Source: Cyanophora paradoxa CCMP329 (Eukaryota > Plantae > Glaucophyta). Taken from it: a stretch of DNA of 55,535 nt. The notes below the pieces were generated by a model. That model searched no databases. It was not told the origin of the DNA and was given only the letters and a program-made list of their open reading frames with translations. Made by a program: the position numbers and the translations under genes. Below, in pieces: positions 2,961 through 46,043 of the stretch (position 1 is its first letter; each line of letters begins with the position of its first letter). Where the stretch lies: contig QPMI01000690.1 of assembly GCA_004431415.1 (NCBI GenBank), positions 1-55,535 on the forward strand. The letters run 5' to 3'.

Positions 2961-3057
2961 CGCCCCCTGGGCCCGCCCGCCCCGCCCCCCGCCCCTCCCC
3001 TCTCGGACTCATCGGCCCTCAATTCGACAGGGCTGCGGGCGGAGCGCGGGGGCGCGG

Positions 3058-3536
3058 CTACGCGCGCTGCGGGACGGGCGGCCAGCTGTGAGAGCCGAGG
3101 GCGAGGGAGAGGGCGTCGTAGGCGAGCCAGAAGCCCTCCTGCGGCTCCGGGGGCGCCGCGAAGAGGGCCCGCGGCGCCATGCGCTCCTGCGCGCGCCGGG
3201 ACGCGTTGCGGGTCGACCGGTGGAGACCGAAGAGGCGGGCGGCGTGGGGGCAGCGGCTGGGCTTCAGCGTCGCGGCCGCGAGCTCCCGTGCGTGCTCGCC
3301 GCCAGAAACTGCCTCAGCTCCTTGGCGCTCAGACGCGACAGCGCCCTGACCATCCCTCCGTCTCCAGGTCGACGTGCAGCACCTGCCAGGGCGCGATCCG
3401 CTCCGCGGCGCGACGGGACGCGGCGCGGGTCGACTTGCGGATGGCGACGATGGCGGCGACGGGCAGCGGTCACGGTCGCGGACGCGTCGTCCCCGGCCGC
3501 GGCGCGGGTCGCGACGCGAGCGGTGGTGCGGGGCAT
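3058..3536 (-). CDS. Hypothetical protein, ~160 aa (frameshifted in this copy)
   Basis: The repeat copy reads through uninterrupted (MPRTTARV...SWPPVPQRA). A TATAAAT box lies ~60 nt upstream on the minus strand (~3590). Confidence 0.6.
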
Positions 3537-3971
3537 CTTGTTTCGATTCGAGAGAGAGAGAGTGGCACGAGGCCGGGCGCGCCCCCCATTTATACCCCCG
3601 AGGGCAGGGCTCGGCCCGAATCCGGGCACCCCCCCCTTTCCCCTCCCCTCCTCTCCTCCCCCCCGTACCCCCCCATCCTGACCTGTTTCCCTCGCCCCCG
3701 CAGGTCCCTTTCGTCTCCGCGCCTGGGGCCCCGCCCCGCCCGCCGCCCACCCCTCCACTCCCCCTCCCCACCCTTCTCGCCCAGGTACCCCTCCTCGCCC
3801 CCTCCCCCCGCCTGGAGACTCGCCGCGCCCCCCGCAAACGTCCCCGCCCTCACCCCCCCCCCCCCACGCAGGCCGAGGCCGCGGTGGTACACGGATACGT
3901 TGCCGCTGCAGGAGCGGGGGTACCCGCGCGGCTACCCGGGCGCCCCGGTCCGCGCGCCCCGCCCTCTGCCC

Positions 3972-4613
3972 CTATCGACCGACGAGCTGAGCGTCCGGGC
4001 GCAGCGCCGATCGGGAGGGCGTCTCGGCGGACCGCGTGCACGGAAAGGAGAGGGAGGCGGGCGGCGGGGCCCCGAAGGACATCCAGTCGACGCTGGCGAA
4101 TCGCCGCCGGAACGGTTCCGGCATGAAGCCCAGCGTCCCCTCGGCCTCGGCGGCGAGCCGCGCGGCGTACCCCGGGTCCTCCCGGGCGAGGCGGGCGTGC
4201 TCGGCGGCGGCAAAGTAGGCGCCTCCGACGGGGCACGGCGCGCGGCACACGGGGCAGCTCGCCGCCCTCCAGCGGACCATGCAGCCGTAGCACATCACGT
4301 GACCGCACGCCTCGGAGACGGGCCGCGTCACCGGCTCGAGGCAGACGGGGCACTCGTCGGTCCAGCGGAGCGGCGACGGCGGCCCGGCGGCGCGGTTCTG
4401 GAAGCAGCGCCAGGCGATGCAGCAGGCGAGGCCAAAGTCGATGTGCCGCTCCCGCGCCGCCTCGTCCTCCTCGGGGTCGGCCCCGAGCGGCATCTCGATC
4501 GTCTCGAAGCGGATCCGGCCCTCGGGCGTCGTGCCCACCGCCAGCGCGCAGCGCGAGACCCCCCTCTCCCGATCGTACTCGATGAGCCGGTGCGCGGGTA
4601 CCCCCGCCTGCAT
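3972..4613 (-). CDS. C3HC4 RING-finger protein (putative E3 ligase)
   Basis: CPVC...CGHVMCYGC...CPVC is canonical RING spacing. ATG at 4613 with TAAAAGAGGG ~50 nt upstream. Confidence 0.85.
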   Translation of the reverse strand: MQAGVPAHRLIEYDRERGVSRCALAVGTTPEGRIRFETIEMPLGADPEEDEAARERHIDFGLACCIAWRCFQNRAAGPPSPLRWTDECPVCLEPVTRPVSEACGHVMCYGCMVRWRAASCPVCRAPCPVGGAYFAAAEHARLAREDPGYAARLAAEAEGTLGFMPEPFRRRFASVDWMSFGAPPPASLSFPCTRSAETPSRSALRPDAQLVGR

Positions 4614-4808
4614 TTCTCCCCCGGGCTCAACGCTGACGGGGTACCCCCTCAGGTCGCCCTCTTTTAGGCTCGCCCCGCGGGGGGTACGCCCGAGGCGGCG
4701 CGGCGATTCCGGGCCCCCGTTTCGGCGCAGCCGTCGGAGACGCGATAAAAAGGGGACGGGGCGGGCCTGAATCCGCACACTCTTCGCCGAGCTCTGCACC
4801 CCGCGATC

Positions 4809-7800
4809 ATGCCTCCCGTCGCGTCTCCCCTCGTCGTCGCCGCCGTCGAGTCTCCCGGCGGCGCGTCGCCCCCGAAACGGGAGGCGGCGCCGGCGGGCGT
4901 CGCGCCCGGCCCGGCCCCGCGTCGCGTCTCCACCTCCTCGGCCCCGCCCCCGTCGCAATCGCGAGGATGGGGCGGGGGCGTGGACGCGGCGGGCTCGCGG
5001 GGGCGGAGCCCATGGAGGTCGACGTCGCGCCGGCCGCCGCCGCCGCCGCCGCCGCCCGGGTCCGGCTGGAGGCCCACGCCCTCGTCAAGCCGGCCGTCCC
5101 GGGCCTCCCCGACCCCTTCAACCAGCGCTGGCGCCGCCGCCCCCTCCGCGACCTCGTCGACGCGGCGGCGCGGCGCGCCTTCTGCCAGGCCGCCTCCACC
5201 CTCGCCGTCCGCCGCCCCGACGGCTCCCAGACCGCCTGCGTCTACGCCGGATTCCTCGACTTTGACGCCGCCGGCATCGCGCCCTCGGAGAAGAAGGGCC
5301 TCGCCGCCAGGGCCGCCCCGCTGCGCACCCTCGCCGAGCTCTTCGCCGCCGAGCCGCGCCTCCTGGAGCCGGCCGGGACCGCGTACAGGCTCGCCAAGGC
5401 GTGCGGGGCGTACCCCCCCGCGCCCGGCGAGGCGCCGCTCGAGTGCCTCGTCACCTTCAGCGGCCTCAAGGCTTCCACGTCCTCCTCCGCCACCCCGCCC
5501 TGCTCGTCCGGGCCCCGGGGCGCGCGTCAAGGCGGACGGCCAGGTGGAGCCGGCGGCGGCCGGCGGCGGCCGGGCCTACTCCGTGGACGACCTCCTGGAG
5601 ACGGCGCTCGTACCCTGCTCCGCAGGCTGCCGGGCCTCTCCGAGGAGGACGTGCTCGGCATCGTGGCGGCGATCGACAGGTCCCCGCTCAACCCCAACTG
5701 CGGCCTCCGCCTCGACGAGTACCCCCACCCGCTCACGGGGCGGTACCCCGTCGCCGTCTCGGGCCCCGACCTCGACGCCCTGATCGAGCCCGACGGCGAG
5801 GCGGCGGAGCGGGTCCTCATCGCCGGCGACGGCCCCGCCCCGGAGATCTCGGCCTTTCTCTCCGGCCTCTTCGCCGACCTGGAGCGGCGCGTGGGGACGG
5901 AGGAGGCCGTGGCCGCCCTCCCGGCCCTCCCCGAGGCCCCGAGCGCCCCGCGCGAGGGCGGCGGCGCGAGCAGGAAGCGTCGGCGGGACGGGAGCCCGGC
6001 CCGGGGCGGCGCCGGCAGCGCGCCCGAGGCCCTGCGCCGGGCCCTGGAGCTCGCCCCGCACCATCGCGATCGGCGGGGCGCGCCCCGCAAGGTCCGACTC
6101 GTGGGGCGCTCGGAGGACGGGCGCTACGTCACGTTTCGCGTCAGCCCCGCGGCGGGCAGCGGCGCCCGGTGCCACCTCGGCGTCGAGCACGACTGGCGCG
6201 GGACCCTCTGCTCGGTCTCGCAGCTCCTCCCGGGGGCGAGCATGGTGGCGTTCCGGTGCGGGGGCCAGAACCACTCGGACTGCGCCCGGCGCCCCGTCTT
6301 TGGGCGGCCCGTCTGGGACGGGGCGCGGGCGGACCCGGCCGAGGAGGCGGCGGACGACGCGGCCCTCGTGGCCCTCGGCGAGTGCCTCTCGAGCATCGCG
6401 GACGGGGCGCGCGGCGGCGGCGCCGCCCCGCCCGCCCGCACCCTCCCGTACCCCTTCTCCGTCGTCCCCCGCACCAACGACCGCGTCTACTCTGTCGACG
6501 CGCCCTGCGCCGAGTGCGGCGGGGCGCGCGGGGGCGTGCTCGTCGACGTTCTGGCGCGCGAGGTCAAGGCGTTCCCGTGCGCCGGCTGCAAGGCGGCGAG
6601 CCCCGAGGGGCGCACCCGTCGCCTCGACCTCCTCCCCGAGCTGGGCTCGGAGCTGCGCGCCGCGGAGGACGCCGTGCAGCGCGCCCTCGTCGCGCGGGCG
6701 CTGGAGGCGAACGGGGGCCCCGGCATCGCGCTCTTCGGCGCCGCGGGCCCGAAGGGCTGGCTGGAGGCCCTCCCGCCCCTCGGCGGGCAGGCCGGGGAGC
6801 AGCTCGTCGCGATCATCGAGGTGCTGCGCCAGCGGGTCGTGGCCAAGGACTGGTCCGGCGAGCCGATCCGCCGCGGGCTCGTGCCGGAGGCGGCGCGGAA
6901 GGCGCTGGACGCGCTCCCGCTCCCCGACCTGCGCGAGCCCCTCGGGCGGCCCGCCGGCGGGGGCTTCGACTGGCGTGACATCGTCCACGACGCCAACGAC
7001 CTCGGCGACCCGCGGCGCCGGTGGGTGGACAAGGAGGCGGTCGAGGGGGCGCTCCGCGGGCCGGCCACGCGGCGAGGCATGCTCTTCCTCCGGGCGCAGA
7101 CGGGTACGGGCAAGTCGCAGGCGATCGTCCACCTCCTCGCCGAGATGCGCAAGTCCCCCGCCGCGTACGGCCTGCCCCAGCACTTCAGGATCCTCTACGT
7201 CGTCGCGGGGCGGATCCACGACGAGCTCCTCCTGGCGGACACGCGCTACACGGCGATCTGCGCGGTGCCGTGGACCTCGTACAAGGAGATGACGCCGGGG
7301 CAGCTGGCGCAGGCGAGCGCGCAGCTCATGTCGACCGTCGAGTCGATCCAGCGCCTCGAGGGCGCCTTCCAGGTCGTCGTCGTGGACGAGGGGGCCAAGG
7401 CGCTGGCCACGCTGGCCCTCTCGACGACGCTGGCCAAGGAGGGGCGCCACAGCGCGGCGGTCGCGCGATTCAGAAGCCTGTTCGCCCAGGCGCACCGCCT
7501 CGTCATCGCCGACGCGGACCTCTCCCAGCCCGACGTCGACTTCTACGTCGGCCTCTTCCTCGGGGCCGGCGCGGCGGCGGCGGGGGCGCGGGGGGCCCCG
7601 GAGCCCTTCGTGGTGCAGTACCTGCACCGGCTCCGCGAGCACGCGCGGGCGGCGCTCCTCCTCCCCTGGATGTACGCCCCGCTCCTCGTCGCGGCGCACC
7701 TCCTGGCCGGCAAGCGCGTCGTCCTCTCCGCCGACGACCGCCGCGCCCTCTTCGCCACCCTCGCCCTCCTCCACGCCCACCCCGCCCTCCGCGCGCGGGT

Positions 7801-10412
7801 CGAGGCCGGCCGCCTGAGCTCGCTCTTCATCTACGCCGACGCGCCCGACGCGGAGAAGGAGAAGCTCAAGGAGAAGGCGCTCGTCGGGGCGCTCGACCTC
7901 TTCGCCTACAACTCGGCCGTACCCCAGGGCAGCGACTTTAACGAGGGCGGCTTCGACGTCTGCATCGTGGCGATGGGCGGGCGGACGTACGACGTGAACG
8001 GGGCGGGGCAGGGCATGGCGCGCGTGCGCTCTGTCGCGGAGCCGGACGTCTTCGTGTGCGCGGGGCGCGAGCCGCGGGAGGAGGCCGCCCTGGGGCCCCT
8101 GGGGGCGACGGTCGGCGGCGTCGAGGCCGTCTACGAGCGGCGCCTCGAGGAGGAGCGCGAGATGCGGGGGCGGGTCGAGGGCGACCGCGCCCGGCTCCCC
8201 CGGGCCGACCTCGCCTTCCTCCGCATGCAGGCGGCCCGCCTCGTCGTCCTGAACTGGAGCCGGCAGCGCACCGTCCAGGCCCTCGACGCCAAGTTCGGGA
8301 AGATGGGGTACGCGCGCGGCCTGGAGCTCGTCGAGAAGGCCGAGCCGCTCCCCAAGTCCGTCGCCTCGCTCCTGAACGGCCTCGCCGCGCGCGTGCGCTC
8401 GGCGGCGATCTACGCCCCCGTGGCCGCCGCCGCCACCCTCGGGGAGGAGGACCCCCGGACGGGCGCCATCGTGGAGAGCATGCTGGCCGGGAGGGCGCCG
8501 GCGGCGCTGGGTCGGTGGCCCGTGACCGAGGCGGAGAGGCTCGCGTGCCGGAAGCGCTTCGTGGCCGGCGCCCTCCGCATCGACCCCGCCGACGTCAGCC
8601 TCGCGGAGGTCGAGGCGCACGCCAAGGAGACGCCCGCCTCCCTCCGCCCCCTGATCCGCGCCTTTGGCGCCGCCGCCGGCCCCTTCCTCGCCGACCGCGA
8701 CGGGCGGGGGGCGGTCTACGGGAGGCACGGGGGGTACGGGCTCCTGGCGGGGCGCGTGGACAAGCAGCACACGCGGCGGAGCGCCCTCGCCCTCCTCGCC
8801 CTGGCGGCGGCCCCGGGCCCCCGGCGGGGCCCCGCGGCCCGGCCGCCCGGCGCCCTCGTCGTCGAGAAGCTCTCGCCCCTCGGGCTCCTCGACTCGTTCG
8901 CGCCGGACGCCTGGCCCGCGGCGGACCTCGCTCGCCTCGCGGCGGCGGTGGAGCGGGACCGGCTCTTCGAGCACGCGACCCGGCGGGACTTTGTGGTCGG
9001 GGCGGGCCTGCTCCAGCAGGCCGACCGGGCCGACGCGGCCGCGTGCAGGGCGTACCGCGCGCGCGCCCAGGAGCTCTTCGATCTGGCCAAGGAACCGACG
9101 CTGGAGGTGGCCGTGGGGAAGCACTTTCTCCGACTCCTGAAGCGGGCGGCCATCTGGGCGGGCGTACCCCTCAAGCCGGCCGTCTTCGCGGGCCCCCCGA
9201 AGCGCCGACAGGTCGGCGGGCGGCGGGTGACCCAGAGGGCGGCGTCGAGGGCGGGATTCGTGGTGGACTACCTCGCCCTCGCCTTTGTTACCTGCGCCCA
9301 CGCCAAGACCGAGTACGCGTCCCGGCGGCTCTTCGAGGCGTCGAACCCGGAGCCCGAGGCGGCGGCGGCGGCGGCGGAGGAGGAGGAGGAGGGGGAGGAG
9401 GAGGGCGCGGCTCCGGGCGGGGACGGCGAGGAGGGGGAGGGGGCGGGCGAGGGCGGCCGGCGGGGGGGGAGGAGACGGACGTGGCGGACGGCCTCGATCG
9501 GGCGAGCGAGGGCGGGGACGAGACGGCGGAGGCCGACCGGGAGGCCATCGAGGCGCTCCTCGCGGGGGCCGCCCCGGGGGAGCGCGCCCCCCTCCCGCCC
9601 GTCACGTACCCGGAGCCGGAGGAGGGCGCGGGCGCGCGCCGGTGGACCCGCCACGGGGCCCGCCTCTTCTTCTCCGCGATGAACCTGACGGCCGTCGCCA
9701 TGAGCGCGATCGTCGAGCTGGGGCGGCCGCTGCCGCAGCGCAGGCCCCTGCGCGAGCGCGCCGAGCTCCACCCCTCTGTCTGGTACGGGCCGGCGGCGCG
9801 GGCGCTGGCGGCGGAGCCCAACGAGCTGCTCGGGCGGCTCCTGGGGATGGGGGGGGGCGAGGAGGCGATCCGCGCGGCGGCGGCGCGCGTGCACGCGGCC
9901 CTGCTGGACTCGTGCGACGCGGAGGAGAGGGCGGGCGCCGAGTCCGAGGCGGAGCCGCGGGTGACGCCGGCGGCGCTCGAGGAGCTCCTCCGCGCCCTCT
10001 GCGAGCGGGCCGCCGAGGCGGAGGCGCGCTCCGCGGCGGATCCCGGCGTCGACGAGGAGGACGCGCGCTGGTTCGTGGGGCGCCTGGCCGAGGCCTGGCG
10101 CGCCGGCGCGGGGACGCGCTCCGACCCCGCCAGTTTCACCAAGAAGGAGCTCAACGGGATCTTCAAGCCCAAGGACCCGACGAGCGGGGAGGAGCTCCCC
10201 GTGACGCTCCGGGGGCTCCCGAACAAGGTCGCCGTCATCAAGCCCGGCAACAGCAGCGGGTCCGGCCTCGGCCTCGTCGCCGACTGGCTCGAGAGGCGCG
10301 GGGCGCCGTCCCTCCGCATCCAGCTCGAGTGGCGCGCCCGCCCAAGGGGAAGGAGCTCACGGGGATCGCCGTCCCCCGCGCCCTCTTTGCTCACTTCGGA
10401 TTCGACAGCTAG
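4809..10412 (+). CDS. AEP primase/PrimPol + UL52-like Zn finger + UL9 (origin-binding protein)-type SF2 helicase fusion; several apparent sequencing frameshifts
   Basis: AEP motifs: FLDFD, FSGLK/GFHV (1-nt slip at ~5470), IDRSPLNPNCGLRL. Zn finger: CHLGVEH...FRC...HSDC. Helicase motifs: AQTGTGKS, VVVDE, VIADAD, AYNSAVPQGSDF, QGMARVR. The C-terminus continues through frames 8056..10728 and 9285..10412 to FGFDS*. The start may be 4809 (ATAAAAAGGGGAC at 4745) or 5012. Confidence 0.85.
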
Positions 10413-17394: not shown

Positions 17395-18765
17395 GCGTCG
17401 TCCGCAAGGCGAACGAGTGAAAGGGAGGGAGGGTGCCGCGCCGCAAGAGGCAGGGGGGTAGAAGAGTTTCCGGGGCGCCATGCGCCCCCGCGCCGATGGA
17501 CCAGGCCTAGGGGGCGCCGAAGCTCGTTCTGGGGCGTCGGGCGAGTCTCCAGGGGGAGGGGGGGGGCCGCCGGGGGTACGGCTCGGAGCTTTCGCGCCGC
17601 TCTCTCTCGGGGGCGGCGGCGAGTTTCGAAGGGGGGGGGGGGGAGCTTGAGGGGGGGTAGCTGGGGGTACGAGCGAGATTCTAGCGCCGCCCTCTGTCGG
17701 GGGCGGCGGCGAGTCTCCCGGGGGGGTGAAACGAGGGGGTACGTGGGGGTACGGTCGAGATTCGAGAGTCGTTTGCTTCGAGGGGGTGGCGGCGAGTCTC
17801 CAGGGGGGGAGGGGGAGGTAGGTGGGGGTACGGTCAGAGATTCAGCGCCACCCTCTTTCGGGGGCGGCGGCGAGTCTCCAGGGGGGGAGGGGGAGATAGC
17901 TCGGGGTACGGTCAGAGATTCAGCGCCACCCTCTTTCGGGGCGGCGGCGAGTCTCCAGGGGGGTGGGACGAGGGGCACGTGGGGGTACGGGAGAAATTAT
18001 AGAGCTGTTCGCTTCGAGGGGGTGGAGGCGAGTCTCCAGGGGGGGAGGGGGAGGTAGGTGGGGGTACGGTCAGAGATTTAGGGCGGCGCGGCTCTGGATC
18101 TCTCTCGGGGGCGGCGGCGAGTCTCCGGGGGGGTGGGACGAAGGGTACGTGGGGGTATGGCCGAGATTATGGAGCAGTTCGCTTTGAGGGGGTGGCGGTG
18201 AGTCTCCAGAAGGTAGGAGGAGGCCACCGAAAACTCGCCGCGCCCCCCTCAGGGACCCGTTGCACGGGCGTGAGAAGCCAAGGGTGAGCGAGCTCGAGGA
18301 GAAGGCCGGTCCCGTACCCCGTCTCCCAACCTGGACCCCGCTGGAAACTCGCCACGCCCCCCTCAGGGGCCGGCTGCACGAGCGTGAGAAGCCGAGGGGG
18401 AGCGAGGGAAAGGCCGGTCCCGTACCGGGACCCCATCTCCCAAACCTGCCCCCCGCCGCTGGAAACGCGCCGCGCGCCCCTCAGGGGCCGGCTGCACGAG
18501 CGTGAGAAACCGAGGGGGAGCGAGGGAAAGGTCGGTCCCGTACCCCGTCTCCCAAACCTGCCTCTGCCGCTGGAAACTCGCCACGCGCCCCTCGGGGGCC
18601 GGCTGCACGGGCATGAGAAACTTTAAGCCGAGGGCGAGCGAGGGAAGGGCGGACCCGTACCCCGTCTACAAACCCGCCCCTGCCGCTGGAAACTCGCCGC
18701 GCGCCCCTCAGGGGCCCGCTGCACGGGCGCGAGAATTCGGAGCCGAGGGCGAGCGAGGAGAAGAC
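17395..18765. repeat. Left arm of large imperfect inverted repeat (~80-bp array x~9, then ~115-bp array x~4.5)
   Basis: Reverse complement of 35165-38060, including the non-array stretch CCGCGCCGCAAGAGGCAGGGGGTAG...GGGGCGCCATGCGCCCC. Confidence 0.85.
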
Positions 18766-19303
18766 CACCACCCCCTCCCCCCTGGAGACTCGCCGGCTCC
18801 CCCTCTGAGAGAGCGGTGCTCGAGATTTGATCGTACCCTCACCAACCCCGCCCCCCGCCCCTGGGAGACTCGCCGGCTCCCCCTCGGAGAGAGCGGCACT
18901 CGCGCGTCGTCCGTACCCCGCCGAATGGAAGATGAAACCCCGCCTCCCGCCCCCCTGGAGACTCGCCGCCGACCCCCTCTGAGAGAGCGGCGCTCGGGAT
19001 ACGCAATATATATAAGGAATGCGAGAGGTCTAGATCGCAGAGGGACCGGAGCGTGCGGCCAGAGCACCTTCAGGTGATCGCGGTCAGGGCTCAGATTTCG
19101 AAACGATATAAAGGAACGCGCGCGCGCGCGCCTCTATCTCTGCGCACACGGATCCGGGCCGGGCGGCACTCACGACCACGATCCATAGATTGCGATCGAT
19201 CGAAACTGGGTTCGCCCCCAAGATTCGTGATCGCGATCGGCGGCATAAATTTCAGACCGCTTTCACAGAGCCCTCAGTCCCCACACCGCGACCGAAAACG
19301 ATC

Positions 19304-20227
19304 ATGAGCAGTTGCGTCCACCCTTACGTCGCGTCCGGGGCCGAGGGCGACGTGTGCACGTCCTGCGGCATGTGCCTCGACGCGTACGGGTCGTACGCGA
19401 CGCCCCTGGGCCTCGTCTGCGACGAGCAGGGCGGCGCCGGCGTCGCGTCCTCGCACGATCGATATCTGCAACTGGGGCTGGATCTGCTACGCGATATTCC
19501 AGAGCCGGCGCCGCGCACGTGCACGTGGCAGCCTTCCAAGTCTAGTTCTGCGCGCGCAATCCCGAGCTCGAGCGCGCACGGTACCCACGCGAATATGAAT
19601 CGCACGGAGCTGGATCAGACTGTGAGGGAGACGGCAGAGCGCATGCTCCTCCCGGAGATTGTCTGGCGCGAGGCCCTGGAAACGCTCCGCGAGAAGCGCG
19701 CCGTGATCTCGGGGAGGCGGTACACATCCCTCGCCCTCGCGGCCCTCTATCTGGCCGTCCAACAGCTCGATATCCCTCGTGGGATACACGATTTCGAGCA
19801 CGCGGCCCCTCCCGAGGCGCGCCACGAGGTCCGAAAGTACGTTCGCGTCCTCTTGGAGGCGACGCCGGCGCCGGCGCCGGCCGCGGGGCCCCCCGCGGGC
19901 GATCGGCGCGAGGGCCGTCGCCTTCACACGTACGACTTGGGCGTGTCCCTCGTGGAAAGCGTCGGAAAGAATATTGGAATCGACGGTTCGATCATCTCGG
20001 CCGCCCAGAAGCGCTACAGAGAGTACCTGGAGGCGGGACGAGCTCGTTCCAGGACCCCGAAGATCCTAGCGATAGGGGCGCTCGCGCTCGCGGCCAAGCT
20101 CTCCGGACGCGCTTCCTGGTCCACGCGAAAAATCGCGATTCGAGCCGGGGCCTCTCCGACCGCCGCGCGCGCTGCGGTCAGGGAGATGAGGGCACGGCTC
20201 GGGATAGACCTAGATCTAGACCCGTAA
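19304..20227 (+). CDS. TFIIB-like transcription initiation factor, 307 aa, intronless
   Basis: N-terminal Zn ribbon CVH...CTSCG, followed by two cyclin-fold repeats (GRRYTSLALAALYLA..IPR and SRTPKILAIGALALA..KIAIRAGAS). Confidence 0.85.
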   Translation: MSSCVHPYVASGAEGDVCTSCGMCLDAYGSYATPLGLVCDEQGGAGVASSHDRYLQLGLDLLRDIPEPAPRTCTWQPSKSSSARAIPSSSAHGTHANMNRTELDQTVRETAERMLLPEIVWREALETLREKRAVISGRRYTSLALAALYLAVQQLDIPRGIHDFEHAAPPEARHEVRKYVRVLLEATPAPAPAAGPPAGDRREGRRLHTYDLGVSLVESVGKNIGIDGSIISAAQKRYREYLEAGRARSRTPKILAIGALALAAKLSGRASWSTRKIAIRAGASPTAARAAVREMRARLGIDLDLDP

Positions 20228-25290: not shown

Positions 25291-25374
25291 CGCGCGCAGG
25301 CGCGGGAGATCTTTGCGGGCCGTGACACCTAGAACTCACCGTCTCGCTCATACTATGATATCCCGCGTCTCGGC

Positions 25375-27200: not shown

Positions 27201-28265
27201 TTACATGTCGCCCCGGAGCCGGCGGGTAAACTGAATGTCCTGCCCGGGATTTGAGCGGCCCGTGGATTTGAGCGGCCCGTGGGGGTGGCGGCCCGGGGCG
27301 CGGGGCGATGGGCGCGGGGCGCGGGCCGGGCCCACCTTGGCTGGATCGTGATCCGCTTGGCGTGGATGGCGGCGAGGTTCGCGTCATCGAGACGGTTCAC
27401 GAGAAACTGCGCCCGCAGTCAGGTCAGGCGGGCGCCCGGGAGCGAAGGGGCGGGGAAGGAGCGGGCGCGCACGGCCTCGGCGGCCTCGCGGAGGCACTCG
27501 ATGGCCTCGCGGCGCCAGCGCAGCTCGATATTACCCTCGCCTTCGGCCGCCTTCTTCTCCTTCATGACGTCCTGCCCGATCTCCCTGACCTGCGGCCCGT
27601 GACGCGGGGGGCCGGGCGACCGGAGCGGGCCGGCGCACGAGGCGGGCAAAGCCGGCGTAGCTGATGAGCGCGTTCGTGGTCTGCACGGTGGCGGTGAGCC
27701 GTCTCGGCCGCTCGTACGGCGGGGGCGCGCGCGGAGCCGACGTGCCTTCTGGTACTTGCGGATCTACGGGAGGAGGGAACTGTCCGTCGGGCACGAGCGA
27801 GGGGATCGAGAGAGGCGAGGCGCACCTCGCGAAGTGCCACGGTGCCTTTCAAGACGCCCCGCCAGGTCGCCGGACCGGCGCACGCGTCAGGAATCAGCGG
27901 CGGGGGCGGGGCGGCGGGCCCGGGGGGCGCGTGGGGCGGCAGGGAAACGACCGGGGCGGTAGCGGTGAGGCTTCTTGACCTGGTGACGATGACCAAGGTG
28001 AGCAGAGGCCGGCGCGTGTGCGCGGCCCACGGCTAGCAGTGGCCCCGGGATCCCACGCACCCCGCCGGCCGCGGGCGCGCTCTTGCGGGCGGCCTTGCTC
28101 GAGAGATTCTTCTTGGCGGGCGCGTCCGCGAAGCGCTTGCGAGGAGCCTTCTCTCCCGTGCCCTTCTGACCCTGCGAGCACGACGACGTCGTACGCATCG
28201 GCGGCGCCGGCGCGCGGCGGGACGGCGGCCGGGAGAGAGCTCACGGTGTGCTTCACCCTGGCCAT
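27201..28265 (-). CDS. Histone H3 variant (~155 aa, 9 exons) with CenH3-like histone-fold features
   Basis: Exons: 28265-28245, 28171-28061, 27979-27952, 27845-27826, 27763-27746, 27680-27639, 27589-27473, 27406-27336, 27239-27201. They give MARVKHT-GQKGTGEKAPRK...[55 protein letters not shown]...[40 protein letters not shown](K)-DIQFTRRLRGDM*. One base is missing at the last junction, and intron 5 is GC-AG. Confidence 0.92.
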
Positions 28266-29247
28266 CGAGACGCGCTAGAGTGTGGCTGGAGAGCGTGCGA
28301 CGCGCGCCCCATCCTCGACGCCGGTGGACCCTTTTCTGCGCGACCACCGCGCGCTCGAGTGACAGCGATCGAAGCTGCGGGTCGCTGGATGCGCGGGAGA
28401 TGGCGCGGCCGCGGAGCTGGGCATGTGCATACGAGCAGGAAGAGATATCGATACCCGCGGAGTCGAACCCGCGTGCCTGAAATGCTTGGCTCGTGCGCCG
28501 AATTGGCGTACCCCAGTGAAACCGAATTGGCGTACCCCAGTGACTAGGACCCCCAGGGCCGTTGATAGCCGCGGGCACGCGGCCCGAATCCGATTTCGCG
28601 GTCGCCGCCCCGGCAGGCATCGATTCCCATACAAGGGCACCGGGGTACGGGCGGGACCGAAACTTCGATCCGCTGGGCACCCACCTCCAAATCGGCACCC
28701 TCGCCACCGATTTACTGCTAAATATCACGCTTAGTGCGGATCCACGGATCCTCGTTTATCAAGCAAAACGGATTTCAAAAAGTGCCATACCGGACGTACC
28801 CCCCGTGAAGTAGGGGTTAGATGAATTAATGGACCCGCACTAACACCGCGCAAGACGTCGGGGGGGCCCCTTCTAGCCCCTGGTATTTTTAGTGCGGCAT
28901 AATGACCCGGTCCTGGGACCCTCGATCACGACTTCCGGGGGAGCCCCTTCCCTAGGAGAGGGGGGAAAGACGCGAGCAAGCGAGCCGGCGACGCCGGATT
29001 CGTGCACTACGCTCCCGGCTGCGCTAGTAGCGCGCTTGCAGCCGGCAGCGGGCGAGCCGGTGCGGCGGTGGGGCGAGATCAAATCGAGAGCGACTCCTGA
29101 TCACCGAATCGGTGACTCACGAGTCGCTATGGGGGGGGGGGTACAGCTAGCCGTTGGCGCGGGGGCCCCGGCGGGCGCCCTTAAAGAGATCCCGGGAGCG
29201 GCTCGAGGCTCGGGGATGGCAGAGGGGCGCGCGGGAACGCCCGTGGG

Positions 29248-32200
29248 ATGTTCTCCGTGGTGACAGACACCTACGAGAGGGCCGAGTTCCAGGGGCCCTA
29301 CGGGTGGACGGGCCTGGTCGTGCTCCGCACGGACGCGGGGCCGAGCGTCTGCGTACCCGAGCTCAGGCGCCTCATCGCGTTCACGGGGGGCGACGCGCGC
29401 CTCGGGGAGACCTTTGGGGTCCCGACGCGGCCGCTGCGGGATGAGAACACGATCCTCCTCCTGGAGCACCTCGCCGCCCTCCCCCGCAAGCACTACGACG
29501 CGCAGGAGCGCCCGCCGCACGTCCTCGCCCTGCGCTACGTCGAGACGGTCATAGGCAACTCGTGGGAGCGCTCGCAGGACGTGCGCATGCCCCGGGCGGC
29601 GGCGGAGCTCTATGCGGCGCTGGAGAGGAGAAAGCAGGGCACCTTGCAGCGGCTCGAGATGCAGTTGATTCGGACCGGCGGCGATCGGCTCCTGGCCGTC
29701 CGGGCGCGGCGGATCGAGACGCCGGAGCTGCAGTGGTGGATCCCGCTCGCGAGCCTCGCCGAGGCGGCGTACGGCGACTCGCGCAGCACGAACTGCGTGC
29801 GCCAGGAGATCGTGAGGAAGCACCCCGACCTCGCGGTGGGCGGGCCTCACCGGTTCGAGGCGAGCACGCGGACGGTGGGGCGCGAGCGGCTCGCCCTCCT
29901 GACCCGCACCCTCGTCCACTACGGCGGCCTGGGCGCTGACGTGGCGACGTACGGCTCCGCGCGCCGCTGGGCGTTTATCAGCGCGCTGGGGTGCGAAAAG
30001 GTGCTGGCGGGGCTGCCGGACCGGGCCCCCGGGCTCGCCGCCGAGTTTAAACGAGCGCGGCTCCTCCTGGAGGGGGCCGACCCCGCGACGCTCGACTCGG
30101 CCCCGTCGCTGCCGCTCGCCCCGGCCCCGCGCGTCTCCATCTTCGGACGCAAGACCTGGCTAAAGGTGAGCGGGGCCTCGGCGAGGTGGGGGGTAGGGAG
30201 GCGGGGAAGGGGGGGGGAGGGAGGGGGGGGGTACCGACCACGCCGCAGGACGCCGAGATCGCCAACGTCCTCTCGCTCCTGCTCCTCCGGGCGCACGCGG
30301 GGGACAAGGTCAGGGCCCTGTACCCCATGCACGTCGAGATTCTCGCCTCGCTCCTCCGGCGGTACGCGCGCGCCGACGAGGCCAGGCGCGCGCGGGGAGC
30401 CCTTGGCGCCGCCGAGCGCGGCGCCTGCGTGCTCTGCCCCGTCAGCGTGGGCAACCTGCGGCGCGGCGGGGAGCGCACAAAGGGATGGGCCTCGGGCGGC
30501 CACTGGACCCTCCTCGCCGTCGACGGGAGCGCGAAGCGCGTGGGGTACTGGGACTCGCTCGGCGCGGACCCCGAGCCGAAGCTGCAGCACGCGGCGATGG
30601 CGGCCTTTCCGCGCTTCCCGTTCGTCGTCCAGACGGGCGGCCGCCTGCAGGTGGGGGACGGGTATCAGTGTGCGCGCTCGCCCCGCCCCCCTCCTCCGGC
30701 CCCCTCCCCCGCGCGCCCGCGCCCCCCCTCACCTCGCCGCCGCCGCCGCCGCCGCCGCAGGCGGGCCGTGGACCCTCTGGTTCGCCGAGGTGAAGACGCA
30801 AGAGGTGCTCACGGGCTTTCCCTGGTCCGACGAGATCGAGAGCGGGTGCCTCTCGTACGTGTACCCTGGCGAGGCTATCTCGTCGGCGATCGCGGCGGAG
30901 AACGGGCGGTTCATCGCGGAGAAGCGCGAGGCGTACCGGACGATGCTGGAGAGCGGCGTCGTCGACCAGGCCGTGGCGCTCTTCGACGAAGACTCGCTGC
31001 CGGACGCGGAGCGCGTCGTCCTCCCCGCCGTCCCCGCCACGGCCGCCGCGGCGGCGGCGGCGGCCGCCGCCGCCGCCAAGTCCGTTCGAAAGGCCGGCAA
31101 GGCCGCGGCCGCGGCGGCGGCGGGGGGGCCCTCCATCACCGTCCTCTCCTCGTCCTCGTCCTCGCCGTCCTCCGAGGACGGCGGAGAGGGAGACGAGGAC
31201 GGGGAAGAATCCGAGGGGCGCGCCGACGGGGACGGGGCCGACGCGCCGGCGGGGACAGAGGAGGCCCTCGCCGAAGAGGTGCACGAAGATGGGGAGCCGG
31301 GGGCCGAGCGGCTCGCGCCCTACGCCCTGCGCGAGTCGGAGATGTCACGGGAGCTGAGGAACCAGCTCGCGGCGTTTCAGACGTGGCGCACCTCGGCCCT
31401 CAACCCCGACCGCCAGGGCGGCGCCGCCGAGCGCTCGACGGTCCTCGTCAACGACGTCGGCACGATCTGCCGCCTGCTGGGGTACGTCAAGGAGCGCGAA
31501 CAGGTCGGGCCGCTCACGATGGACCTCTTCGCGCGCACCGATTTCGTGGAGATCTACCTCCGCTTCCTCGGCTACCTCCGCTCCGAGCGCAGGCTCGCGG
31601 CCGGCACCCTCGCGGGGTACACGCAGAGCGTGATGCAGGCCTACGCGTTCGTTCACAGCCGAACCGCCGGGGCCGAGGCGGGGGCCGATCGAGAGGGTCC
31701 GCACGCCCGCCCGCTCCGGAACCTGAAGACGCAGTTGGAGAAGGAGAAGAAGCAGCAGCGGGGGTGGAGGAAGCGCGGACCGAACTGGGTCTCGTTCGAG
31801 GCCGTCCTCTCGGCGCGGCGCGAGGCCCTCGAGGCGTTCGAGGCGGCGCCGCTCGAGCGGGACAGGGCCCTCGCCCTCCGCGAGGCCGTGCTCATCGGGT
31901 TCCTGAGCATCACGCCGGCCCGCGTGGGGGTCGTGCGGCGCCTGCAGATCGGTCAGACGCTGCGGCGCGACGGCGGCGCGTGGGCGATCTCGCTCACCGA
32001 GATGCGGCACGAATCGGGGGAGCTGGTGTCGAAGACGGCCAAGTCGCACGGCGCGATCACGGTCCCCATCGCCAGCCCGCTCCAGGCCCCCCTCGAGACC
32101 TACGTGGAGCGCTACCGCGGCCTCCTGCTGCCCGCCGGGCGCGCCGACGAGGGCTGGCTCTTCGCCTCGAGCAACGGCACCTGCCTCTCGGAGAGCGGGT

Positions 32201-33698
32201 GGGCCGTCTTCGTGCGCAGGGTGATGCTCAAGTACGTGGGCCTCCCGATCACTGCGAAGACGATGCGGGCGATCATCACGACGCACGTGCGGGAGCAGGC
32301 GGCGGCGAACCTGATCGAGAACGAGACCGCGGCGGCCGTCGTCGAGGGCGTCGCCCGCCTCCTCGCCCACACGCCCCAGACGGCGACCCTGCACTACGAT
32401 TACGGGGCGCGCCAGCGCTCGGCGGCGAGCGCCGTGGCGTACCTCGAGCGCCTCGCCCTCCAGCACGAGGCGCGGTCCAGGGGCTCGGCGTCGAGCCCCA
32501 CGGGCCTCCCGGGCGCCTCGTCGTCGGCGCCCCCGCCGCCCCCGCCGCCGCTGCCGCCGCCGCCGCCCTCCCTCCCCCTGGAGGCCCTTCCCGAGCCGCC
32601 TCCAGATCCCGACCCCCGCGCAGCACCCTCCTCCTCTTCCTCCTCCTCCTCGCGATCCGCGCGCGCAGAGGGCCCGGCGCCGTCGCCCGCCGTTGCGGCG
32701 CGGCCGGCCCGCGGCGCGGCCGCCGGGGGGAAGGAGAGCGGGGCGAGGGCCGGGCCGGGGAGCGCCGGGAGCTCGGGGTCGGCCCGGGCCGCCCAGGAGA
32801 GCACCGAGACGAGTTCGGGGTCGCAAGAGGAGGAGGCGGAAGAGGAGGAGGAGGAGGAGGAGGAAGAGGAGGAGGGGGAGGAGAGCGGGTCGTCCGCCGA
32901 GCGGCCCCGGAAACCGAAGCGCTTCCACTGGCAGCGCCGCCGCCTCGACCCGGGGGACCAGATGGAGCTGGACCTCGCCCGGGGCGAGGGCCGCTACTGC
33001 GAGACCTGCAAGCGGGTAAGGAACTCCCCGCCCGCGACCCCCCGAGCACGCGCGCCGCGCACCCTCACCGACTGTAGATCTTCCAGACGGCCGGGGGCGC
33101 CCGCCAGCACGCCCGGAGCTGTTCCGGCGGGGCGAGCCGCACGCGGGAGAGGCGGGGAGGGGGCGCGGGGCACGGGCGAGGGCGCGGGCGGGGTGCGGGG
33201 TCGCCCGCGGCCCTCCCCGCCCCCGTGCACGTCGCGCAGCCGGCTTCCGAGGGGCCCCCGCCTCCGACCTGGCACCTTCGGTGGGTCAGCGCGAGCCCGT
33301 ACCCCCCCGGGCAGGTCGCGGCGGCGATGGCGACGCACTCGACGGACCCGCTCCCGCGGACGGTCTTTGCTCGGCTCGTCCAGACCGTGCGCCTCCCCAG
33401 CGGCGAGTTCGAGTCCCGCTGGGTCGTGCTGCGGCGCTTCGGGGCCTTCTGGACGCCGGGCTCCGAGGGCAGCGCGCGCGAGTGGAGGGGGGTACGGGCG
33501 CTCGCGCCCGTCGACTACGACGCGAGAAACGGGAGCGTGGACATCAGGACGCCCGCCGCCCGCATCTCCGACCTCCTCGGGCTCGGCTCCGGCACGCGGG
33601 CGCCGTCGCCGCCGCCTCCGCGGTCCGGGGCGGGAGCCCGGGGCGAGGGAGGGGCCTTTCGGCCGCGGGGCCGGCCCCGGAAGCGCCCGGGTACCTGA
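29248..33698 (+). CDS. Multidomain tyrosine recombinase (1404 aa spliced): Bro-N-like + Ulp1/C48 protease + YR + C2HC Zn finger + AT-hook
   Basis: Introns 30166-30248, 30670-30760 and 33016-33077 keep frame without any indel. Ulp1: WLK|DAEIAN, GHWTL, WDSL, QVGDGYQC|GPW. YR: PARVG, SKTAK, KTMR, LLAH, LHY. Zn finger: CETCKR|IFQTAGGARQHARSC. AT-hook: RPRGRPRK. Confidence 0.9.
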
Positions 33699-35100: not shown

Positions 35101-35164
35101 TCCCACGACCCCTCGCACTCCGTTTGCCGAGCGCCGCTGCAGAGGTTCTCGCGCCCGTACGCGT

Positions 35165-38060
35165 GCGGCGGGGCCCTGAGGGGCGCGCGGCGAGTTTCCA
35201 GCGGGGTCCAGATTTGGAGGCGGGGTACGGGACCGCCCTTCTCCTCGCCCGCCCTCGGCTTCTCACGCCCGTGCAGCGGGGCCCTGAGGGGGGCGCGGCG
35301 AGTTTCCAGCGGGGGAGGGTCGGGTCTGGAGACGGGTACGGGACCGCCCTTCTCCTCGCCCGCCCTCGGCTTCTCACGCCCGTGCAGCGGGGCCCTGAGG
35401 GGGGCGCGGCGAGTTTCCAGCGGGGGAGGGTCGGGTCTGGAGACGGGTACGGGATTCCCCTTCTCTCCCTCGCCCTCGGCTTCTCACGCCCGTGCAGCGG
35501 GGCCCTGAGGGAGGCGCGGCGAGTTTCCAGCGGGGGAGGGTCGGGTCTGGAGACGGGTACGGGACCGCCCTTCTCCTCGCTCGCCCTCGGCTTCTCACGC
35601 CCGTGCAGCGGGGCCCTGAGGGGCGCGGGGCGAGTTTCCAGCGGGGGAGGGTCGGGTCTGGAGACGGGGTACGGGATTCCCCTTCTCGCGCTCGCCCTCG
35701 GCCTCTCACGTCCGTGCAGCGGGGCCCTGAGGGGGGGCCCTGCGAGTTTCCAGCGGGGGAGGGTCGGGTCTGGAGACGGGGTACTGGATTCCCCTTCTCT
35801 CGCTCGCCCTCGGCTTCTCACGCCCGTGCAGCGGGGCCCTGAGGGGCGCGCGGCGAGTTTCCAGCGGGGGAGGGTCGGGTCTGGAAACGGGGTACGGGAT
35901 TCCCCTTCTCTCGCTCGCCCTCGGCTTCTCACGTTCGTGCAGCGGGGCCCTGAGGGGGGCGCGGGGCGAGTTTCCAGCGGGGGAGGGTCGGGTCTGGGGA
36001 CGGGGTACGGGATTCCCCTTCTCTCACTCGCCCTCGGCTTCTCACGTCCGTGCAGCGGGGCCTTGAGGGGCGCGGGGCGAGTTTCCAGCGGGGGAGGGGC
36101 GGGTCTGGAGACGGGTACGGGATTCCCCTTCTCTCACTCGCCTCGGCTTCTCACGCCCGTGCAGCGGGGCCCTGAGGGGGCGCGGCGAGTTTCCAGCGGG
36201 GAGGGTCGGGTCTGGAGACGGGGTGCGGGATTCCCCTTCTCTTTCTCGCCCTCGGCTTCTCACGTCCGTGCAGCGGGGCCCTGAGGGCGCGGGGCGAGTT
36301 TCCAGCGGGGGAGGTCGGGTCTGGAGACGGGGTACGGGATTCCCTTCTCTCCCTCGCCCTCGGCTTCTCACGCCCGTGCAGCGGGGCCCTGACTGGGGCG
36401 CGGCGAGTTTCCAGCGGGGGAGGGTCGGGTCTGGGGACGGGGTACGGGACCGCCCTTCTCCTCGCTCGCCCTCGGCTTCTCACGCCCGTGCAGCGGGCCC
36501 TGAGGGGGGCGCGGCGAGTTTCCAGCGGGGGAGGGTCGGGTCTGGAGACGGGGTACGGACCGCCCTTCTCCTCGCTCGCCCTCGGCTTCTCACGCCCGTG
36601 CAGCGGGGCCCTGAGGGGGGCGCGGCGAGTTTCCAGCGGGGGAGGGTCGGGTCTGGAGACGGGGTACGGGATTCCCCTTCTCTCCCTCGCCCTCGGCTTC
36701 TCACGCCCGTGCAGCGGGGCCCTGAGGGGGCGCGGCGAGTTTCCAGCGGGTCCGGGTCTGGAGGCGGGGTACGGGACCGCCCTTCTCCTCGCTCGCCCTC
36801 GGCTTCTCACGCCCGTGCAGCGGGGCCCTGAGGGGGGCGCGGCGAGTTTCCAGCGGGGGAGGGTCGGGTCTGGAGACGGGGTACGGGACCGCCCTTCTCC
36901 TCTCCCGCCCTCGGCTTCTCACGCCCGTGCAGCGGGGCCCTGAGGGGGCGCGGCGAGTTTCCAGCGGGGAGGGCGGGTCTGGAGATGGGGTACGGGATTC
37001 CCCTTCTCTCCCTCGCCCTCGGCTTCTCACGCCCGTGCAGCGGGGCCCTGAGGGGGCGCGGCGAGTTTCCAGCGGCCTCCTCGTACCTTCTGGAGACTCG
37101 CCACCACACCCGGTGAGAGGGGGAGCGCTAGAACTCTGACCGTACCCCACACCCCCCTACCCGCCCCCCGAGACTCGCCGCCGCCCCGAAAGAGAGCGGC
37201 GCTTAATCTCTGACCGCACCCCTAGTCGCCTCCCTCCCGCCCCCCTTGGAGACTCGCCGCTGCCCCCCCAGAGAGAGAGAGTGGCGCTTAATCTCTGACC
37301 GTACCCCCACTCCCCTCCCCCTCCCCCCCTGGAGACTCGCCGCTGCCCCCCCGAAGCAAACAGCTCTATAATATTGACCGTACCCCCAGCTCCCTCCCCC
37401 CTCCCCCCCTGGAGACTCGCCGCTGCCCCCGAAAGAGAGCGGCGCTTCATCTCTGACCGTACCCCACCTACCTCCCCCTCCCCATTGGAGACTCGCCGCT
37501 GCCCCCCAGAGAGAGAGAGAGAGAGTGGCGCTGAATCTCTGACCGTACCCCCACCTACCTCCCCCCTCCCCCCCCTGGAGACTCGCCGCTGCCCCCGAAA
37601 GAGAGTGGCGCTGAATCTCTGACCGTACCCCCAGCCCCCTCCCCCCTCCCCCCCTGGAGACTCGCCGCCGCCCCCTCGAAGCAAACGGCTCTCGAATTTC
37701 GGGCGTACCCCCCACGTACCCCCTCGTTCCAACTCCCCCGGGAGACTCGCCGCCGCCCCCGAGAGGGCGACGCTAGAAGCTCGGCCGTACCCCCAGCTAC
37801 CCCCTCCCTCCCTCCCCCCCCCCTCTGGAGACTCGCCGCCGCCCCCCGAGAGAGAGCGGCGCAAAAGTTCCGAGCCGTACCCCCGGGCAGCCCCACCCCA
37901 CCCACCCCCTGGAGACCCGCCCGACGCCCCAGAACGAGCGAGCTTCGGCGCCCCCTGGGCCATCGGCGCGGGGCGCATGGCGCCCCTGAAACTCCTCTAC
38001 CCCCTGCCTCTTGCGGCGCGGTACCCCCCTCTCTCTCGCTTGATCGCCTTGCGGGCGCGA
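35165..38060. repeat. Right arm of large inverted repeat (~111-bp array x~17, then ~80-bp array x~11)
   Basis: GGCGAGTTTCCAGCGG recurs every ~111 nt to 37072, then CTGGAGACTCGCC every ~80 nt. Inverted relative to 17395-18765. Confidence 0.9.
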
Positions 38061-40421: not shown

Positions 40422-40833
40422 CTAGGCGAAAGCGGCGCCGTCCGCGAGCTCAAACGCGAGGCGGGGATCGGCGGCGGCGAGGGCCCGCATCTTGGCGAGC
40501 TTGCGCGGGCCGCCCGAGGCGGTCCGCTTGACCTCCATCTCGGCCGCGCGCGCGGCGGCGTTGGAGGGGAAGCCGTGCAGGACGGCGGCGAGGGCCCAGG
40601 GCCCGCGGCCGCGGGTGTAGGCGGTCTTGGACGAGCCCGAGAGGTGCTCGGCGAGGCGGCGGAGAAGATTCTGGGTGGATCCGACGTAGGCGAGGCCCGG
40701 GGCGAGGAGAGGAGGTAGACGACGGGGCGGGGCCGAGGCGCGCGACGAGCTCGGATGGGATTCGGAGGGTGGCGAGGGGTGGGCGGGGGCGGGCGGGCGG
40801 GGGGTACGGGGCATCGTGCGGAGCGGTGCTCAT
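40422..40833 (-). CDS. GIY-YIG endonuclease, SLX1-like catalytic domain (indels in the 5' part)
   Basis: VVYLL...LAYVGSTQNLLRRLAEHLSG...YTRGRGPWALAAVLHGFPSNAAARAAEMEVK, with catalytic Y, Y, R, H and E present. Confidence 0.85.
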
Positions 40834-45698: not shown

Positions 45699-46001
45699 GA
45701 TCGTCGAGCACCGGCCGTCGGCGCGCGCAGCCGCAGCTGCAGGCTGCAAATGCGGTGATGAGCGCTAGTACGCGTACGGCGTGGCGCACAGCGGCCGGCG
45801 GCGCGGCTACCGTAGTACCGGCCCGCGGGGTAGGGCCGCTAGGCTAGCTATCATAGACTAAGATTCGAATTCATTGTACTACGGTACATAGCTAGGTCAC
45901 AGCCTAGGTGTGTGCACGTGTGGGCGTATCGCTAATTTTGCGGGGTAATATAAGGCTGCTTCTCATCCGCTAGCCTGAGCTAGGGAATTATGGTGGAGCC
46001 G

Positions 46002-46043
46002 GAAATTAGTGGACTGAGTCAAGATTTTCAGTCCACTAATTTC
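46002..46043. other. Perfect 16-bp inverted repeat with 10-bp spacer; candidate recombination site or circle junction
   Basis: GAAATTAGTGGACTGA-gtcaagattt-TCAGTCCACTAATTTC in lower-GC non-coding DNA. The structure is certain, the function is inferred. Confidence 0.6.

Follow-up and report, generated by a model that had tools for sequence, protein, structure and literature searches.

A predicted protease-tyrosine recombinase fusion family in Cyanophora paradoxa and environmental sequences

Introduction

Can a tyrosine recombinase and a protease acting on ubiquitin-like modifiers be parts of one protein, and what kind of element would carry such a protein? The question is raised by a gene of the glaucophyte Cyanophora paradoxa CCMP329, located in a 55,535-nucleotide stretch (contig QPMI01000690.1 of assembly GCA_004431415.1, positions 1 to 55,535 of the forward strand; hereafter, the window). 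An earlier note on the window had read this gene as a tyrosine recombinase fused to a SUMO-protease-like domain. Here, we describe the predicted fusion gene, its paralogs and environmental relatives, the antisense RNA that covers it and the 48.3-kb unit in which it resides. The gene probably codes for an integrase/excisase that serves a multicopy DNA element and is predicted to be a single spliced protein equipped with its own ubiquitin-like-modifier protease.

Results

Structure of the predicted fusion gene

The gene is predicted to splice into a single chain in which a protease domain precedes a recombinase (Table 1). The three introns and the seamless frame proposed in the earlier note are borne out: all introns are of the GT-AG type, and the G+C content at third codon positions (GC3) is 0.92-0.95 for every exon read in the joined frame. 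Each of the three introns interrupts a conserved motif, and the division of the WLxD motif by intron 1 and of the catalytic cysteine codon by intron 2 was likewise found as described. Exon 2, read alone in its own frame, has a GC3 of 0.95 and an intact catalytic set, and is kept among paralogs down to about 45-60% identity. Sense introns are similar in size and splice-site sequence to introns absent from RNA-like contigs of the same organism (four runs of two studies, the RNA label of which is presumed). The splice model draws its strongest support from the fact that intron removal restores the alignment to uninterrupted environmental genes, which are described below. As judged by comparison, the occurrence of joined motifs in paralogs and of uninterrupted frames in environmental sequences is more than chance.

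The protease domain

The His-Asp-Cys triad, the oxyanion Gln and the N-terminal Trp, residues by which clan CE/C48 proteases are recognised, are all present in the fusion protein. The Pfam Peptidase_C48 profile matches exon 2 weakly (E=0.0012), under the curated cut-off. A structure model was obtained for residues 1-535 of the close paralog P0001, which is 83% identical to the window protein over 1026 residues. The model resolves two domains, and is poorly resolved at residues 133-276. Residues 293-516 matched a NEDD8 protease first in Foldseek (E=8.5e-7), and Ulp1 with E=5.9e-6. In VIA-align, the first 23 entries (Z 12-17) are all clan CE proteins, and mixed-specificity enzymes lead; top fold matches include NEDP1, SnCE1, OtDUB, SENPs and Ulp1. 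Viral clan CE proteases, including those of giant viruses, fit the fold as well as cellular ones. The model thus assigns the domain to clan CE, Ulp1/SENP type, with intact catalytic residues. Because the matches are of mixed specificity, the substrate class (SUMO, NEDD8 or ubiquitin) cannot be read from the fold; of the SUMO-protease-like domain of the earlier note, the fold is retained, and the specificity for SUMO is not.

The recombinase domain

The catalytic set R-K-(K for H)xxR-H-Y, as it had been read initially, was recovered in full and is largely invariant among aligned relatives (R834 in 80/80, K871 in 78/79, R949 in 75/79, H983 in 68/71 and Y992 in 62/69). Position 946 is occupied by K in 36 and by H in 10 of 80 aligned relatives; K being the most frequent residue, the K-for-H replacement is a family trait. 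The recombinase of the window protein alone is not matched by Pfam, and a model built from the single sequence has low confidence (pLDDT 35). A profile of 50 family members, compared with solved structures, matched a XerC-like protein best (E=1.4e-8), followed by XerD (E=2.3e-7), and also Int, XerA and XerH. The Pfam Phage_integrase profile matches 11 of the 50 members, none of which matches the DUF3504, DUF3435, GCR1_C or Flp families. GCR1_C and DUF3504, markers of CryptonF and CryptonA, were also missing from all 31 environmental members searched at E 0.05. Catalytic residues and profile comparisons place the domain in the tyrosine recombinase superfamily.

Paralogs and environmental relatives

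The protease-recombinase fusion is a family and is not unique to the window locus, as indicated by the comparisons that follow. With the recombinase region as query, 11 proteins were retrieved; 9 are EukProt gene models that share the same contig-style names and are 57-92% identical to the query. Ten such EukProt models map to nine contigs, and two of them (P0001 and P0013) are from Cyanophora paradoxa by accession. A search of the full library found 234 recombinase relatives at E 0.001 or better; the best 150 of the 234 are described here, and include three further models of Cyanophora type, as judged by name style. Recombinases of the Cyanophora-type copies are 45-99% identical, forming several subfamilies with near-identical copies within each. 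By a strict pattern, joined peptides are found in 8/12 Cyanophora-type models at junction 1, in 9/12 at junction 2 and in 4/12 at junction 3. P0007 has an insertion at the site of junction 3, as if the same intron had been read through. P0012 and P0010 are partial copies joined to WD40 and EF-hand genes, and these fusions to host-type genes are consistent with chromosomal insertions.

The protease region of P0037, used as query, identified 34 environmental proteins. The four protease motifs are complete in 31 of them, the N-terminal motif being missing in the other three, and a recombinase stretch longer than 250 residues is present in 31/34. A profile made from four Cyanophora-type rows alone detected 31/34 environmental proteins at E 1.3e-7 or better, and the spliced window protein aligns with two of the environmental proteins over about 700 residues (25-26% identity). 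Two metagenome loci carry intron-free versions. In L002, a stop-free frame of 493 codons covers the entire protease and continues into the recombinase; L001 has a 770-codon frame extending from the Cys motif to a chromodomain, a domain found in 28/31 aligned environmental proteins. Since the family has such members, splicing, by which alone the earlier note saw the fusion revealed, is not a general requirement for it. Directly 3' of the L001 fusion gene lies a second, unrelated tyrosine-recombinase-like frame (2462-3325, plus strand; Phage_integrase E=0.14).

A FastTree tree of 81 rows was built from the searched relatives, fragments shorter than 330 residues being set aside and 9 of the 34 environmental proteins included. 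The Cyanophora-type and the environmental groups each form a supported clade. P0018, P0021, P0030 and P0101 belong to a large protease-less sister group from environmental contigs, in which C-terminal chromo, PHD-like or Tudor-like modules are found.

Among viral contigs, searches with P0037, alignment A2, P0018, the helicase and the dyad described below retrieved no relatives. Two weak recombinase loci were detected there (26% identity over 96 residues), and one of them, L004, resembles an ordinary phage integrase. No relatives were found among prokaryote genomes and phage records, and there was no match in Rfam.

Terminal domains and zinc finger

The second domain resolved in the P0001 model, at residues 6-130 (pLDDT mostly 70-90), resembles Dachshund (Z 8.5, rmsd 3.1, 93 aligned residues), Ski-like proteins (Z 7.2) and Mbp1 (Z 4.9). 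This predicted winged-helix domain likely binds DNA, although Z values are middling and the match is to be taken as a lead only. An atlas search with exon 1 gave nothing usable. The C-terminal domain had no Pfam, PHROG or atlas match. Profile comparisons did not support a tandem repeat at the N-terminus, homology between this N-terminus and those of the environmental clades, or a Tudor-like fold of the C-terminal domain.

Antisense RNA

Contigs from the RNA-like runs match the window exactly and reveal spliced antisense transcription over the fusion gene. All 10 introns in these contigs are on the minus strand. By a stricter alignment, 6/6 joints are of the CT..AC type, and none was found in the DNA run X1. 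Sense introns 1 and 2 are each overlapped by an antisense intron, while the remaining antisense introns fall inside the sense coding sequence, including the recombinase core. One antisense intron has the same length as the sense intron it overlaps (83 nt) and is offset by 10 bases. Contigs can show the presence of a joint, not its absence, and those described here neither confirm nor refute sense splicing.

The stitched antisense model is stop-free (461/461 codons). Of 3000 trials with random splice choices, 5% left the antisense frame open throughout (0.6% when scored by absolute length). The antisense frame shifts register relative to the sense codons, and, the DNA being GC-rich, shifted frames often lack stops here. 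Support for antisense coding is weak. We read the transcript as a non-coding RNA, which is likely part of the silencing of the window copy. This reading is in line with the repeat methylation and exonic small RNAs reported in C. paradoxa (PMC12344493; PMC3700990).

Points weighing against an active fusion protein

Several results speak against the interpretation of the gene as a spliced, protease-bearing integrase/excisase. Sense splicing has been deduced by comparison, and the junctions of the paralogs come from predicted gene models. Among the joints listed, none falls at any of the three sense introns, and intron 3 has no RNA cover in the stricter alignment. A protease was found in only 14 of the 157 first-collected recombinase relatives, many of which are fragments, suggesting that it is dispensable in the wider family, and the two protease-bearing clades were not resolved as sisters by FastTree. 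The spacing between the oxyanion Gln and the catalytic Cys is six residues in the window protein, P0002 and P0012, and five in 34/34 environmental proteins and in the remaining motif-bearing paralogs; the longer spacing may affect protease activity. A consensus SUMO site was sought across the 1404-residue protein, and none is present. The ends of the element and its target sites were not found in the window. Lastly, retaining introns 1 and 2 leaves open a frame of 1617 residues, which would yield a recombinase without protease.

This last frame, together with the exclusively antisense introns and the stop-free antisense model, would suit a sense gene that has fallen silent as a relic, or one whose splicing differs from the model; either the antisense RNA or the unspliced, protease-less recombinase would then be the functional product. 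We regard this as very improbable, as exon 2 keeps its GC3 and catalytic set and is conserved in divergent paralogs, and both the random splice trials and the register shifts detract from the open antisense frame.

Proposed mode of action

The domains, intact catalytic residues, multicopy family, intron-free relatives and antisense RNA are observed; the mode of action is inferred from Cryptons, Polinton-like viruses (PLVs), Cre and Flp. At short sites, the recombinase would break and religate DNA by way of a covalent tyrosine linkage, and the element would be excised as a circle and then re-inserted. Circle-mediated excision and integration have been proposed for Cryptons and for PLVs bearing a tyrosine recombinase (PMC13465315, PMC12220804). 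The winged helix, the zinc finger and the C-terminal domain, which is replaced by a chromodomain in the environmental clade, may tether the enzyme to DNA and chromatin. The tethered protease could act on nearby host proteins of silencing or repair, or on the recombinase, by stripping off SUMO, NEDD8 or ubiquitin, and thereby counter a modification-driven turnover of the kind known for yeast Flp. In this way, the protease would likely let the element remove host control tags from proteins where recombination occurs.

Flp is degraded via SUMO and Slx5-Slx8 (PMC6594588), and such a turnover is a reason for carrying a protease. The analogy drawn in the earlier note with Ulp1-bearing transposons and with the control of Flp by SUMO is supported by the literature (PMC2836005, PMC6594588). 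The self-de-SUMOylation suggested there has no backing in the sequence, and since the protein contains no consensus SUMO site, host proteins are no less likely a target than the recombinase itself.

Ulp1-type domains recur on unrelated mobile elements, and the roles given for them in the literature cited here are proposals only. The single-chain fusion makes the question of the protease role testable, as one Cys-to-Ala change separates the two activities, and the intron-free versions should express directly in bacteria.

The 48.3-kb unit

The features of the window are listed in Table 1. The two copies of the terminal direct repeat, by which the contig ends overlap for 7.2 kb, are 97.5% identical and differ by 33 mismatches and 139 gap openings, mostly of single bases. 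Such end overlaps are typical of long-read assemblies of circles or tandem units, and the 48,341-bp unit is a circle, a tandem unit or a recent duplication. No mention of plasmid, circular, viral or recombinase was found in the passages of PMC6704402 searched. GC content and codon use are uniform across the unit, and several genes are intron-rich.

Table 1 Features of the fusion gene and of the surrounding window
Feature	Position	Strand	Details
Predicted protease-recombinase fusion gene	29248..33698	+	four exons (29248-30165, 30249-30669, 30761-33015, 33078-33698); 1404 aa + stop
Intron 1	30166..30248	+	83 nt, GT-AG; interrupts WLK/D motif
Intron 2	30670..30760	+	91 nt, GT-AG; interrupts catalytic Cys codon T/GC (C447)
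Intron 3	33016..33077	+	62 nt, GT-AG; interrupts CxxC...H...C zinc finger
N-terminal domain, aa 6-130	29263..29637	+	predicted Dachshund/Ski/KilA-N-like winged helix
Predicted clan CE (Ulp1/SENP/NEDP1-like) protease domain	30157..30955	+	spans introns 1 and 2; W304, H391, D408, Q440, C447
Tyrosine recombinase, core-binding and catalytic domain	31294..32466	+	R834, K871, K946, R949, H983, Y992
Zinc finger CxxC...H...C	32998..33122	+	split by intron 3 (33016-33077)
Conserved C-terminal domain	33264..33593	+	no family assigned; ~58-61% identity in distant paralogs
Spliced antisense transcript(s) over fusion gene	29136..32385	-	exact-match contigs, runs X18, X19, X20, X23
Antisense introns, GT-AG	29349-29411, 29535-29642, 29793-29850, 29967-30021, 30156-30238	-	
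Antisense introns, GT-AG	30425-30478, 30645-30732, 30866-30936, 31942-31997, 32252-32310	-	30645-30732 inferred from 88-nt gap
Histone H3 variant, divergent	27201..28265	-	nine exons; head to head with recombinase gene
Terminal direct repeat	1..7175		copy at 48342-55535; bounds 48,341-bp unit
Left arm, degenerate inverted repeat	17399..18918		78-118-bp arrays; 81% over 844 bp to 37247-38057
Right arm, inverted repeat	35162..38057		111-bp and 80-bp arrays
Perfect dyad	46002..46043		16-bp arms, 10-bp asymmetric spacer; candidate recombination site or origin
Large gene, likely primase and UL9-type SF2 helicase	4994..10338	+	Herpes_ori_bp E=0.068; PHROG 4913 'replication' E=6e-4
TFIIB-like gene	19112..20227	+	Pfam TFIIB E=1.2e-6
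GIY-YIG nuclease	40434..40691	-	Pfam E=4.2e-11; 52% identical to GIY-YIG directly after recombinase in paralog P0006
RING finger gene	3981..4664	-	Pfam zf-C3HC4_3 E=1.1e-7

The gene adjacent to the recombinase appears to encode a divergent H3 variant with CenH3-like marks. Exon 8 matches H3 (E=6.5e-5) and the Pfam Histone profile (E=1.4e-4), and the only two structure matches of exon 7 are both to fission-yeast Cnp1/CENP-A (E=0.04). CenH3 tails are unlike that of canonical H3; the tail exon found here does match canonical H3 around K27 (E=0.01), and the tail contains an insertion. Loop 1 is about 11 residues longer than in canonical H3, and an extended loop 1 in the histone fold is a mark of CenH3 (PMC2995078; see also PMC9145170 for further histone context). 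One intron is of the GC-AG type, and in the present assembly the exons on either side of the last intron are out of phase. The DNA separating the histone gene from the recombinase gene contains an exact 22-bp direct repeat (28498-28543).

The putative primase motifs of the large gene at the left were identified by eye; this part of the gene has no Pfam or PDB match. Close copies of the helicase region occur as gene models on two other contigs. The helicase gene is followed (10368-13087) by a 1.07-kb duplication containing 150-bp repeats, and these repeats copy a piece of the helicase gene. The dyad occurs once, within an AT-richer intergenic stretch; in 200 local shuffles, 16-bp arms were never obtained, and 15-bp arms were obtained twice. 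The inverted arms enclose 20.7 kb around the recombinase. A Flp-like site common to both arms was sought and not found, the longest exact match being 41 bp.

Other segments of the window were noted. The interval 16300-16641 (minus strand) resembles the GIY-YIG gene by eye and has no Pfam match. An intron-rich gene at about 41300-45700 (minus strand) has an intron-split Walker A motif and is AAA ATPase-like by eye (weak Pfam P-loop match, E=0.13). Tandem arrays with periods of 151, 78-80, 111-118 and 43 bp (1562-2956, 17649-18990, 24680-25250, 25374-26679 and 35162-37884) share a GGA(G/A)ACTCGCC core, and are possible binding-site arrays. Four coding-like segments on the plus strand (38336-39904, 13892-14197, 23937-24296 and 21242-23223) have no family match; by eye, two are beta-rich and alike, and one is BTB-like.

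Nature of the element

The context provided by the overlapping ends, primase-helicase, TFIIB, H3 variant and dyad is stranger than the fusion itself, and two alternatives concern the nature of the element. According to the first, the 48.3-kb unit as a whole replicates itself in the nucleus as an episome, or is a tandem array of one. The fusion would then serve as a Cre/Flp-like resolvase and integrase, with either the single 16-10-16 dyad or the two inverted arms as its sites of action. Replication would fall to the primase-helicase, and partitioning or packaging to the H3 variant and repeat arrays. The end overlap, with its single-base gaps, is what such a circle would leave, and the perfect dyad, the replication gene with close copies elsewhere and the histone gene with its Cnp1-like exon would all find a place in it; the tyrosine recombinase Cre of P1 likewise has a dyad recombination site, loxP. 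The presence of a GIY-YIG gene next to the recombinase at a second, distant locus (P0006) would also suit an episome or one large element. Yet the three other helicase models are on contigs distinct from those of the ten named recombinase paralogs, both searches being length-limited, and the unit also resembles a nest of repeats and could be several elements. Moreover, the arms are only 81% alike and have no common dyad, the H3 gene has a phase break, and an origin or a small hairpin element could also account for the dyad. We consider an episome rather unlikely. It is compatible with the enzyme model set out above, and differs from it in the nature of the element.

In its fullest form, which we regard as similarly doubtful, the unit would be a new kind of nuclear episome or integrating element, endowed with its own primase-helicase, a CenH3-like histone and segregation arrays, TFIIB and a de-SUMOylase-bearing resolvase acting at a single loxP-like site, and escaping host copy-number control as a 2-micron-like circle eight times larger. 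If the unit is an episome that brings along a histone variant, it would be a large nuclear plasmid of a rare sort, and might provide glaucophytes with a vector backbone.

According to the second alternative, the locus is what remains of a Polinton-like or giant virus that has decayed or lost its capsid. The protease would derive from a viral clan CE maturation protease and would cleave the fusion or viral precursors, not host modifiers. PLV insertions are usually 15-30 kb long, have terminal inverted repeats and encode a cysteine protease as well as a recombinase and a primase-helicase (PMC10120064); the DNA enclosed by the arms is within this size range, and PLV and giant-virus insertions have been reported in C. 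paradoxa (PMC12220804, PMC12344493). The equally good fit of viral proteases to the fold agrees with such an origin. TFIIB, RING and GIY-YIG genes are common in giant viruses; these three were the only matches to genes of the nucleocytoplasmic large DNA virus (NCLDV) type in the window scans. Against this, no capsid, packaging ATPase or DNA polymerase was matched in the coding-like segments scanned with general Pfam and PHROG profiles, none of which is PLV-specific; the helicase lies outside the inverted arms; composition is uniform and several genes are intron-rich; and relatives of the fusion bear chromatin-reader domains. A viral remnant is improbable on this evidence, and we favour the integrase/excisase of a multicopy DNA element.

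Comparison with known systems

Oomycete Cryptons are the closest described elements. Like the window locus, these DNA elements of eukaryotes encode a tyrosine recombinase and lack a reverse transcriptase, and some elements of the CryptonF-2_PS type and CryptonS also have a C48 (Ulp1) peptidase (Kojima & Jurka 2011, PMC3212892). The peptidase is presented there as coming 'in addition to' the recombinase, or as a further protein, whereas the window features an in-frame fusion with the protease upstream. Cryptons as tabulated are shorter than 6 kb and have 5-6-bp terminal repeats (PMC3212892), none of which was located in the window, and their GCR1_C/DUF3504 domains are absent from the 50 fusion-family members. 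As in Cryptons, a recombinase occurs without a reverse transcriptase, since no reverse transcriptase-RNase H match was found in the window segments scanned; this feature separates the window from DIRS, Ngaro and VIPER elements.

Ginger1 and Mutator transposases are also mobility enzymes fused to an Ulp1 or OTU protease, often have introns and sometimes a PHD finger (PMC2836005). Unlike the window protein, in which an N-terminal protease is joined to a tyrosine recombinase, they are DDE cut-and-paste enzymes, and the protease is C-terminal in Ginger1. Flp of the yeast 2-micron plasmid is a tyrosine recombinase of selfish DNA, acts at a dyad site and has its level set by SUMO and SUMO-targeted ubiquitin ligases (PMC6594588). 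Flp, in contrast, relies on the host Ulp1 and has no protease domain; the fusion family has no Flp-family Pfam match, and an episomal state of the window unit is only a candidate.

In PLVs with a tyrosine recombinase integrase, long inverted repeats occur together with a recombinase, a primase-helicase and a clan CE protease (PMC10120064, PMC12220804). The window differs in having no recognised capsid or packaging gene, a protease fused to the recombinase and intron-rich genes. Starships are large multi-gene regions with a tyrosine recombinase in eukaryotes (PMC13465315), but the DUF3435 captain is found in 0/50 family members, and Starships are described as fungal elements, with no mention of a replication module.

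The fusion family thus defines a group of eukaryotic tyrosine recombinases with modular chromatin-reading ends, lying outside the tested Crypton, DIRS, Starship and Flp profiles. The earlier note had considered the architecture unfamiliar among elements of this kind; the co-occurrence of a recombinase and a C48 peptidase in one element had in fact been described in oomycete Cryptons (PMC3212892), while neither an in-frame fusion nor this element was found in the literature searched, and Repbase, subscription papers or figures may hold the architecture. By analogy, the fusion resembles a Crypton-type recombinase combined with a Ginger-type accessory protease, a likeness that stops short of membership in a described Crypton group. 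As far as the literature was searched, the in-frame fusion is the new feature, added to two that were already known, namely elements pairing a recombinase with a C48 peptidase and transposases fused to Ulp1.

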